DNA of 64,000 nucleotides from Mobula birostris (lineage: Eukaryota): NCBI RefSeq assembly GCF_030028105.1, contig NC_092391.1, positions 44,489,223-44,553,222 of the forward strand, given 5' to 3'. Of this stretch, positions 26,950 through 28,587 are shown one piece after another (within the stretch, counting starts at the first letter, position 1; the number at the start of each line of letters is the position of its first letter). Below the pieces are notes generated by a model, which was given only the letters and a program-made list of their open reading frames with translations, was not told the origin of the DNA and did no database searches. A program made the position numbers and the translations under genes.

Positions 26950-28587
26950 CAGTTGAAGTCAGAAGTTTACATACACCTTAGCCAAATACATTTAAACTTA
27001 GTTTTTCACAATTCCTGACATTTAATTCTAGAAAACATTCCCTGTCTTATGTCAGTTAGGATCACTACTTTATTTTAAGAATGTGAAATGTCAGAATAAT
27101 AGTAGAGACAATGATTTATTTCAGCTTTTATTTCTTTCATCACTTTCCCAGTGGGTCAGAAGTTTACATACACTTTGGTAGTATTTGGTAGCATTGCCTT
27201 TAAGTTGTTTAACTTGGGTCAAACGTTTTGAGTAGCCTTCCACAAGCTTCTCACAGCAAGTTGCTGGAATTTTGTTCCATTCCTCCAGACAGAACTGGTG
27301 TATCTGAGTCAGGTTTGTAGGCCTCCTTGCTCGCACATGCTTTTTCAGTTCTGCCCACAAATTTTCCATTGGATTGAGGTCAGAAAATGATGTCAAGTCT
27401 GGTTCATCCTTGGGAGCAATTTCCAAATGCCTGAAGGTACCACGTTCATCTATACAAACAATAGTACGCAAGTACAAACACCATGGGACCACACAGTCAT
27501 CATACTGCTCAAGAAGGAGACGCATTCTGTCTCCTAGAGATGAGCGTACTTTGGCACGAAAAGTGCAAATCAATTCCAGAACAACAGCAAAGGACCTTGT
27601 GAAGATGCTGGAGGAAACAGCTAGACAAGTACGTTATATCCACAGTAAAACGAGTCCTATATCGACATAACCTGAAAGGCTGCTCAGCAAAGGAAGAAGC
27701 CACTGCTCCAAAACCGCCATTAAAAAGCCAGACTACAGTTTGCAAGTGCACATGGGGACAAAGATCTTACTTTTTGGAGAAATGTCTGCTGGTCTGATGA
27801 AACAAAAATTGAACTGTTTGGCCATAATGACCATCGTTACGTTTGGAGGAAAAAGGGTGAGGCTTGCAAGCCGAAGAACACCATCCCAACCGTGAAGCAT
27901 GGGGGTGGCAGCATCATGTTGTGGGGGTGCTTTGCTGCAGGAGGGACTGGTGCACTTCACAAAATAGATGGCATCATGAGGAAGGAAAATTATGTGGATA
28001 TATTGAAGCAACATCTCAAGACATCAGCCAGGAAGTTAAAGCTTGGTCGCAAATGGGTCTTCCAAATGAACAATGACCCCAAGCATACCTCCAAAGTTGT
28101 GGCAAAATTGCTTAAGGACAACAAAGTCAAGGTATTGGAGTGGCTATCACAAAGCCCTGACCTCAATCCAATAGAAAATTTGTAGGCAGAACTGAAAAAG
28201 CGTGAGCGAGCAAGGAGGCCTACAAACCCGACTCATTACACCAGTCCTGTCTGGAGGAATGGAACAAAATTCCAGCAACTTATTGTGAGAAGCTTGTGGA
28301 AGGCTACCCAAAGCGTTTGACCCAAGTTAAACAATTTAGAGGCAATGCTACCAAATACTAACAAAGTGTATATAAACTTCTGACCCATTAGGAAAGTGAT
28401 GAAAGAAATAAAAGCTGAAAATAAATCATTCTCTCTATTATTCTGACATTTCACATTCTTAAAATAAAGTAGTAATGCTAACTGACCTAAGACAGGGAAT
28501 GTTTTCTAGAATTAAATATCAGGAATTGTGAAAAACTGAGTTTAAATGTATTGGGCTAAGGGGTATGTAAACTTCTGACTTCAAGTG
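26950..28587 (+). mobile_element. Sleeping Beauty-type (salmonid subfamily) Tc1 transposon, defective, with two right ends
   Basis: TA flanks at 26948-49 and 28588-89; termini cagttgaagtcagaagtttacatacac; transposase KSGSSLGAISK.LKVPRSS.QTIVRKYKHHGTT...[11 protein letters not shown]...[41 protein letters not shown]...[10 protein letters not shown]; contains a frameshift and stops. Confidence 0.95.

Follow-up and report, generated by a model that had tools for sequence, protein, structure and literature searches.

The process in which Tc1 elements pass horizontally from fish to fish and non-autonomous copies then take over is a familiar one, and for this reason the family described here offers only limited surprise. 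Precedents have been published both for the transfer of fish Tc1 elements and for the salmonid family (PMC3516227; PMC2198921; PMC12441823; PMC6362248). The Sleeping Beauty (SB) clade has been recorded in 107 ray-finned species and one mollusc, and its transfer is described as common (Jia et al. 2022, PMC9777934). The accessible text of that survey includes no chondrichthyan SB host, its single chondrichthyan record being ZB-like. It also describes teleost SB elements with terminal inverted repeats of up to 415 bp, the 3' repeat overlapping the open reading frame, which suggests that similar symmetrised forms exist in teleosts (PMC9777934). Tc1 transfers between teleosts and lampreys are known as well (Kuraku et al. 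2012, PMC3516227), and that paper, as far as its accessible text goes, concerns a different Tc1 family from the one treated here. The vertebrate-wide survey of Zhang et al. (2020, PMC7070016) does not mention cartilaginous fish, sharks, skates or Sleeping Beauty in its main text, and the main text of a recent preprint (bioRxiv 2024.12.18.629015) does not mention cartilaginous fish. Tc1/mariner elements have been found to be more abundant in skates and rays than in sharks, with transfer undiscussed in the accessible text (PMC12361510). Outside subscription journals, Repbase and Dfam, literature searches turned up no record of the SB clade in any cartilaginous fish.

The locus examined here lies in a window of 64,000 nucleotides, which is the whole stretch of manta ray (Mobula birostris) DNA analyzed. 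The family to which it belongs resembles SB (AFR53956; SB100X, PDB 5cr4) and the salmonid Tss1/Tss elements (PMC6362248; PMC2198921) in having a DD34E transposase, IR/DR ends and a TA target, and its majority sequence has 94-95% amino acid identity, 97% DNA identity and the same 1.64-kb length. Unlike these systems, it has a cartilaginous host, 16 fixed amino acid differences and a true left arm that is only 92% identical to the salmonid type over 225 bp. Also unlike them, its dominant form carries two right arms and has neither the half-repeat enhancer nor a start codon. The family falls in the same SB clade as the set of Jia et al. (2022), and the loss of the left arm is absent from the accessible text of that survey. 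Cross-class Tc1 transfer with teleosts as a hub, followed by a burst and neutral decay, is a pattern shared with the cases of Kuraku et al. (2012) and Zhang et al. (2020, PMC7070016). With high confidence, the locus can be read as a dead, start-less, two-right-arm copy of an SB-clade Tc1 family that was very likely transferred from a pool moving among bony fishes.

The element measures 1,638 bp (26950-28587) and sits between two TA dinucleotides (Table 1). Its termini are of the CAGT type, the right one with one substitution. The terminal inverted repeat extends over about 434 bp, as opposed to the 230-bp arms of SB, and the two arms are 92.9% alike in the window copy and identical at 435 of 436 positions in the family majority. 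Thus, the left arm is a replacement. It contains the right IR/DR, including its two direct repeats, and about 205 nt of antisense sequence from the transposase 3' end (about 27178-27383), and it matches the true left arm at only 158 of 220 positions. Each arm has its repeat cores at positions 14 and 211. What has been lost is the left IR/DR, together with codons 1-19 and most of the 5' UTR. The window copy and its class therefore lack a distinct left arm, a half-repeat enhancer and a start codon, all of which are present in the full-length copies L031 and L052. Because its left 434 bp duplicate the right end in inverted orientation, the element is a non-autonomous derivative and not simply a decayed full-length copy. 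The 11-nt remnant between the two junctions, which show microhomologies of CAG at the first and AAG at the second, corresponds to a motif located about 115 nt upstream of the ATG in L031, L052 and the metagenome contig L064. The original prediction had placed the element at 27394..28587; its right end stands, but the true start is 26950, and the left 440 bp had been missed.

Table 1. Features of the two-right-arm element and host marker genes in the window
Feature	Coordinates	Strand	Basis
Left TA target-site copy	26948..26949	+	Sequence; same place in family alignment
Replacement left arm (inverted copy of right 434 bp)	26950..27383	-	Inverted repeats
11-nt 5' UTR remnant between two junctions	27384..27394	+	Motif match to full-length copies
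Transposase pseudogene (SB codons 20-340)	27395..28361	+	Protein/structure matches
Right IR/DR arm (inner and outer direct repeats)	28362..28587	+	Repeat analysis; L064 match
Right TA target-site copy	28588..28589	+	Sequence; family alignment
Large taperin exon (host marker, outside element)	13433..15829	-	Protein identity
TMEM203 (host marker, outside element)	39652..40062	-	Protein identity

The coding remnant is readily aligned to SB. Segment 27895-28182 agrees with the SB vector transposase (P0256, AFR53956) at 89 of 96 residues. Three of the seven differences (243, 253 and 255) are sites where the vector departs from natural salmonid-type proteins such as P0247, and the other four (V230A, D244N, W257L and P269L) are the only ones that separate the segment from those natural proteins, against which the predicted figure of about four differences from the SB transposase holds. 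A longer stretch (27724-28182) matches SB100X (PDB 5cr4, E 1e-94), an upstream stretch (27392-27640) matches the SB PAI and RED structures (2m8e, 6urs, 5unk), and a solved SB structure at 90% identity exists. The DNA-binding domain of paired-like type, formed by PAI and RED, is missing residues 1-19 in the window copy and retains them in L031. The family majority has the DD34E triad D153, D244 and E279, with 34 residues between the last two. In the window copy D153 (at 27796) and E279 (at 28174) are intact, and the second catalytic Asp is mutated from DND to NND (D244N at 28069), as had been predicted. The predicted stops are likewise present, being two in number (K128* and W282* at 27721 and 28183), but the single frameshift of the prediction proves to be three (near 27632, 27689 and 28236). 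An alignment of 1,201 bp that takes in the right arm gives 93.8% identity between the window copy and L064. Both the likeness of the copy's right IR/DR to the SB right arm and the high identity that had been proposed are thus supported by measurement.

The frame of the two-right-arm class has its first Met at residue 90, and with no Met before this point the form needed transposase supplied in trans. No open frame of at least 318 amino acids ending at the C-terminus was found among 78 junction-picked loci; a few copies do have long frames that are open but lack a start.

The identity of the host can be read from two genes on opposite sides of the element, each about 11 kb away. The taperin exon is 100% identical at the protein level to Mobula birostris, 86% to Hemitrygon and 49-56% to sharks, and teleosts give partial matches only. 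For TMEM203 the identity is 97.8% with Pristis, 95.6% with Amblyraja, 89.6% with Callorhinchus and 72.1% with Salmo (98 of 136 residues against salmon). The host is therefore a manta ray, cartilaginous as presumed at the outset, and no teleost.

For comparison with the salmonid form, use was made of L064, which carries a full-length element whose protein equals P0247. Its label as salmonid-type rests on the clustering of P0247 with Oncorhynchus and Hucho proteins and on the sharing of all 16 diagnostic residues with the SB vector. The majority of 30 ray copies is 97.16% identical to L064 over 1,197 bp, with 26 differences at 963 coding positions (dS 0.039, dN 0.024, dN/dS 0.62) and 8 differences in 234 bp of non-coding right arm (about 97% identity). 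The comparison with TMEM203 that had been suggested, made on the host side as protein identity, sets this dS of 0.039 against a protein divergence of 28%. Horizontal entry into the ray lineage is very likely, as the original prediction held, because such synonymous and non-coding identity cannot be inherited over the 442-515 Mya since the calibrated bony/cartilaginous split (PMC12361510) while the TMEM203 protein changed by 28%. The element tree also departs from the host tree. The ray element is nearer to the salmonid elements, at about 94-95% amino acid identity, than to those of Sparus, Prochilodus and Coilia, whose protein type is 81-87% identical to that of the ray, and the next clade is at 66%.

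The relationship between the two forms bears on the route. At the 16 amino acid differences between ray and salmonid forms, the ray matches the Sparus/Prochilodus-type protein P0004 at seven, the salmonid matches it at five and neither does at four; the ray-derived residues are I63, A73, L257, L305 and N309. This split argues that the ray and salmonid forms are sisters, and that the ray form would be neither a copy of the salmonid form nor nested in it. The protein tree agrees, but support for the joint ray and salmonid branch is weak (82/81), so the tree leaves the direction of transfer unfixed. A second route, differing from the preferred one in this respect only, is that a real transfer ran from ray to teleost, or that a third carrier such as a parasite passed the element to both. 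Parasites have been suggested as carriers of fish Tc1 elements (PMC3516227; PMC2198921; PMC12441823), and the lack of nesting fits this route too. The known diversity of the SB clade, however, lies in ray-finned fishes, where 33 orders are represented in the accessible text of PMC9777934, and in the ray there is a single star-like subfamily in which full-length copies are nearly absent. An immediate donor other than a bony fish is thus unlikely, although worth keeping in view.

Public sequence data extend the comparison. Among 24 matched runs, from seven coded organisms and with word shares of 0.48-0.62, the four that were compared over 27340-29440 have salmonid-type letters and the full N-terminus, and they confirm that other organisms contain a high-copy sister family. 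These four are uninformative on distribution among rays because none covers the ray flank and a contig gap is not proof of absence. Mobula is the only chondrichthyan genus in the best 120 of 3,477 protein matches, a set in which dead elements are poorly sampled since it consists of annotated proteins. The plasmid collection gave no match to the element, and among viral contigs none of nine pattern matches was confirmed.

Within the manta genome, a DNA search returned 2,049 candidates, of which 40 were scored and 30 fetched. Twenty-seven of the fetched loci align across the same left junction as the window copy, and the remaining three form a second class. Counts were then based on patterns allowing up to one mismatch, with backward controls at zero. 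Class (a), with two right arms, the 11 nt of 5' UTR and codon 20, gave 641 junction matches. Class (b), which is also start-less and has a true left arm with a deletion that runs from the inner repeat as far as codon 3, gave 131. Class (c) is full length, and a 170-bp UTR query found three places: L031 and L052, which are full-length and both broken, and L053, a variant of class (a) that has a 351-bp right-arm copy, 27 nt of filler, a true-left-arm end and the same deletion to codon 20. The ray-type coding marker has 795 matches, and right-type ends outnumber left-type ends 1,623 to 117. Because such patterns catch about three quarters of copies at 4% decay, the family is estimated at about 1,000 copies, 80-87% of them class (a). 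The two-right-arm form therefore dominates the family.

The copies decay near-neutrally and lie about 4% from their majority. Measured against it, 47 copies have a dN/dS of 0.84, and the mean divergence is 3.96% among the 33 of 40 junction-picked loci with at least 600 aligned bases; loci picked for likeness to the window, a biased choice, range over 2.5-5.8%. Recurrent changes among the junction-picked loci are nearly all at CpG, and the spread is therefore star-like. TA is present on both sides in 18 of the 23 loci with both ends mapped, of 40 fetched. From the two-right-arm majority, the start-less left-arm class stands at 4.41% as compared with 3.96% for class (a), a gap with p 0.009 on non-CpG sites (31 of 38 and 33 of 40 loci, respectively, with at least 600 aligned bases). 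Three class-specific sites make part of this gap, so it does not order the two start-less classes by age.

Comparison of the two arms within copies indicates when their symmetry arose. Over 25 loci, 666 of 10,449 sites (6.4%) differ between arms, and the separate decay of the arms amounts to 370 plus 418 changes. Because the arm-to-arm difference is about the sum of the separate decay, and the majority arms are nearly identical, the two-right-arm form existed before the family spread and moved as such. The same data point to some later copying between arms, since 54 changes are common to both arms of the same copy and the chance estimate, a rough one made by hand, is about 10. These shared changes, together with the different breakpoint in L053, could be taken to mean that the structure arose repeatedly through gene conversion between arms after insertion and not by transposition. 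Such repeated conversion is very improbable, however, given a single junction with the same 11-nt UTR remnant in 641 places, class-specific letters at three linked sites and an arm divergence that about matches copy age.

One insertion allows the burst to be placed in time. A Mobula hypostoma gene model (P0066) holds a piece of the ray SB family, and among 125 loci the class (a) locus L198 (G000:C1, about 35.484-35.487 Mb) has 16 of 20 private amino acid changes in common with this model; the next-best locus has four. L198 lies about 1 kb before a matching last exon, which follows the element piece in the model. The L198 insertion is thus older than the split between M. birostris and M. hypostoma, and because a two-right-arm insertion is common to both species, the burst came before the two species separated. 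L198 would be 4.5-5 times as old as the species split (rough interval 2.6-10.6), on the basis of 16 shared changes and 8-9 later ones. Taperin divergences of 2.07% and 13.9% place the stingray split at 6.7 times the age of the M. birostris/M. hypostoma split, and no dated Mobula phylogeny was found in the literature. With a single locus and a single gene as basis, the burst is likely to lie between these two splits; an origin that precedes the stingray split also fits, the age-ratio interval being wide compared with 6.7.

The gene model of M. hypostoma makes the L198 counterpart one of the coding exons of a LACTB2 isoform, and similar fusions occur in salmonid CaMK4 models (P0070, P0092). Both are probably annotation artefacts.

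Two further explanations would remove the transfer altogether. Vertical descent from an ancestor common to bony and cartilaginous fishes might draw on the slow sequence evolution of elasmobranchs and on a ray-salmonid dN/dS below 1, but its probability is negligible in view of the low dS and high non-coding identity across so deep a split, the greater divergence of a conserved host protein and the near-neutral decay of the copies. Contamination or mis-assembly with teleost DNA might be suspected from the best-ranked public DNA, which has salmonid-type letters and leaves the ray flank and junctions uncovered. It is just as implausible, since the copies are spread over many large contigs and each have flanks of their own and 2-6% of private change, one insertion is common to a second Mobula species, and the genome yields 0 exact matches to the salmonid-type marker (12 with one mismatch) as opposed to the 795 of the ray type.

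The history favored here, that of horizontal transfer followed by a burst of a rearranged form, might have proceeded as follows. An active element, sister to the salmonid form, would have invaded an ancestor of Mobula, likely in the interval between the stingray split and the separation of M. birostris from M. hypostoma. In one copy, a deletion of about 170 bp at the AAG microhomology likely removed the stretch between the 5' UTR and codon 20. Subsequently a template switch at the CAG microhomology, with the element folded back on itself, likely put a duplicate of the right end in place of this copy's left end. L053, with the same deletion, more UTR and another arm breakpoint, fits this order of deletion and then arm swap. 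The product would have had four intact, predicted transposase-binding repeats and no start codon. Likely moved in trans by the few full-length copies, it may have made most of the insertions in one burst, after which the full-length copies would have broken and all copies decayed.

In length the two-right-arm form equals the full-length salmonid-type element, each measuring 1,643 bp when both TA are counted. Codon 20 is at position 448 in both, and the 171 bp gained by the arm swap equal the 171 bp deleted. This equality may be due to chance.

The success of the rearranged form runs against expectation because it is missing the left-arm enhancer. The SB left arm bears an enhancer (PMC7827188; PMC5224488), and a third, half-matching motif at position 152, found in true left arms only, is likely this published enhancer, judging by its likeness to the repeat and by the description in PMC7827188. 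The two-right-arm form has four perfect repeat cores. In the ray, the core of the true left inner repeat contains a mismatch, and in class (b) this repeat is clipped. SB constructs with two right arms are reported to work poorly. SB, too, is described as preferring two copies of one end (PMC4505599). Perhaps the two-right-arm form won because its four binding cores were perfect and the true left inner repeat was defective, but this is the weakest step in the argument and is proposed only tentatively, at somewhat short of an even chance. Founder luck is the main alternative and is as simple.

A broader synthesis can be drawn, although it is rather unlikely to be correct as a whole. A two-right-arm SB without enhancer would have out-transposed the canonical form by about 5:1 as the better substrate in vivo. 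Its 434-bp stem, with 205 nt of antisense transposase, would have fed hairpin RNA and shut the family down. The ray majority, with its 16 natural substitutions, would give an independent and probably older picture of the SB ancestor.

The family extends the host range of the SB clade to cartilaginous fishes, which are unlisted in the accessible text of the 2022 survey (PMC9777934). It provides a datable cross-class transfer and hundreds of insertion markers for devil-ray phylogeny. The asymmetry of the SB ends becomes testable, because the left arm has the enhancer, yet the enhancer-less form dominates in the ray. In addition, the ray majority is a source of naturally occurring variants of a transposase that finds use in gene therapy.

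The window contains several other repeats. A broken transposase of a second and different Tc1 family is at 34677-35256. Two related LINE 3' fragments (26125-26553 and 29652-30683) flank the element in opposite orientation with 73-86% identity, and a reverse-transcriptase-like frame occupies 29847-30683. A long, fragmented LINE with ORF1- and ORF2-like frames, which we take to be L1/Tx1-like, spans 40975-46096 and begins less than 1 kb from the start of TMEM203. The fragment at 62083-62526 is presumably part of a pogo/Tigger transposase, which it resembles.
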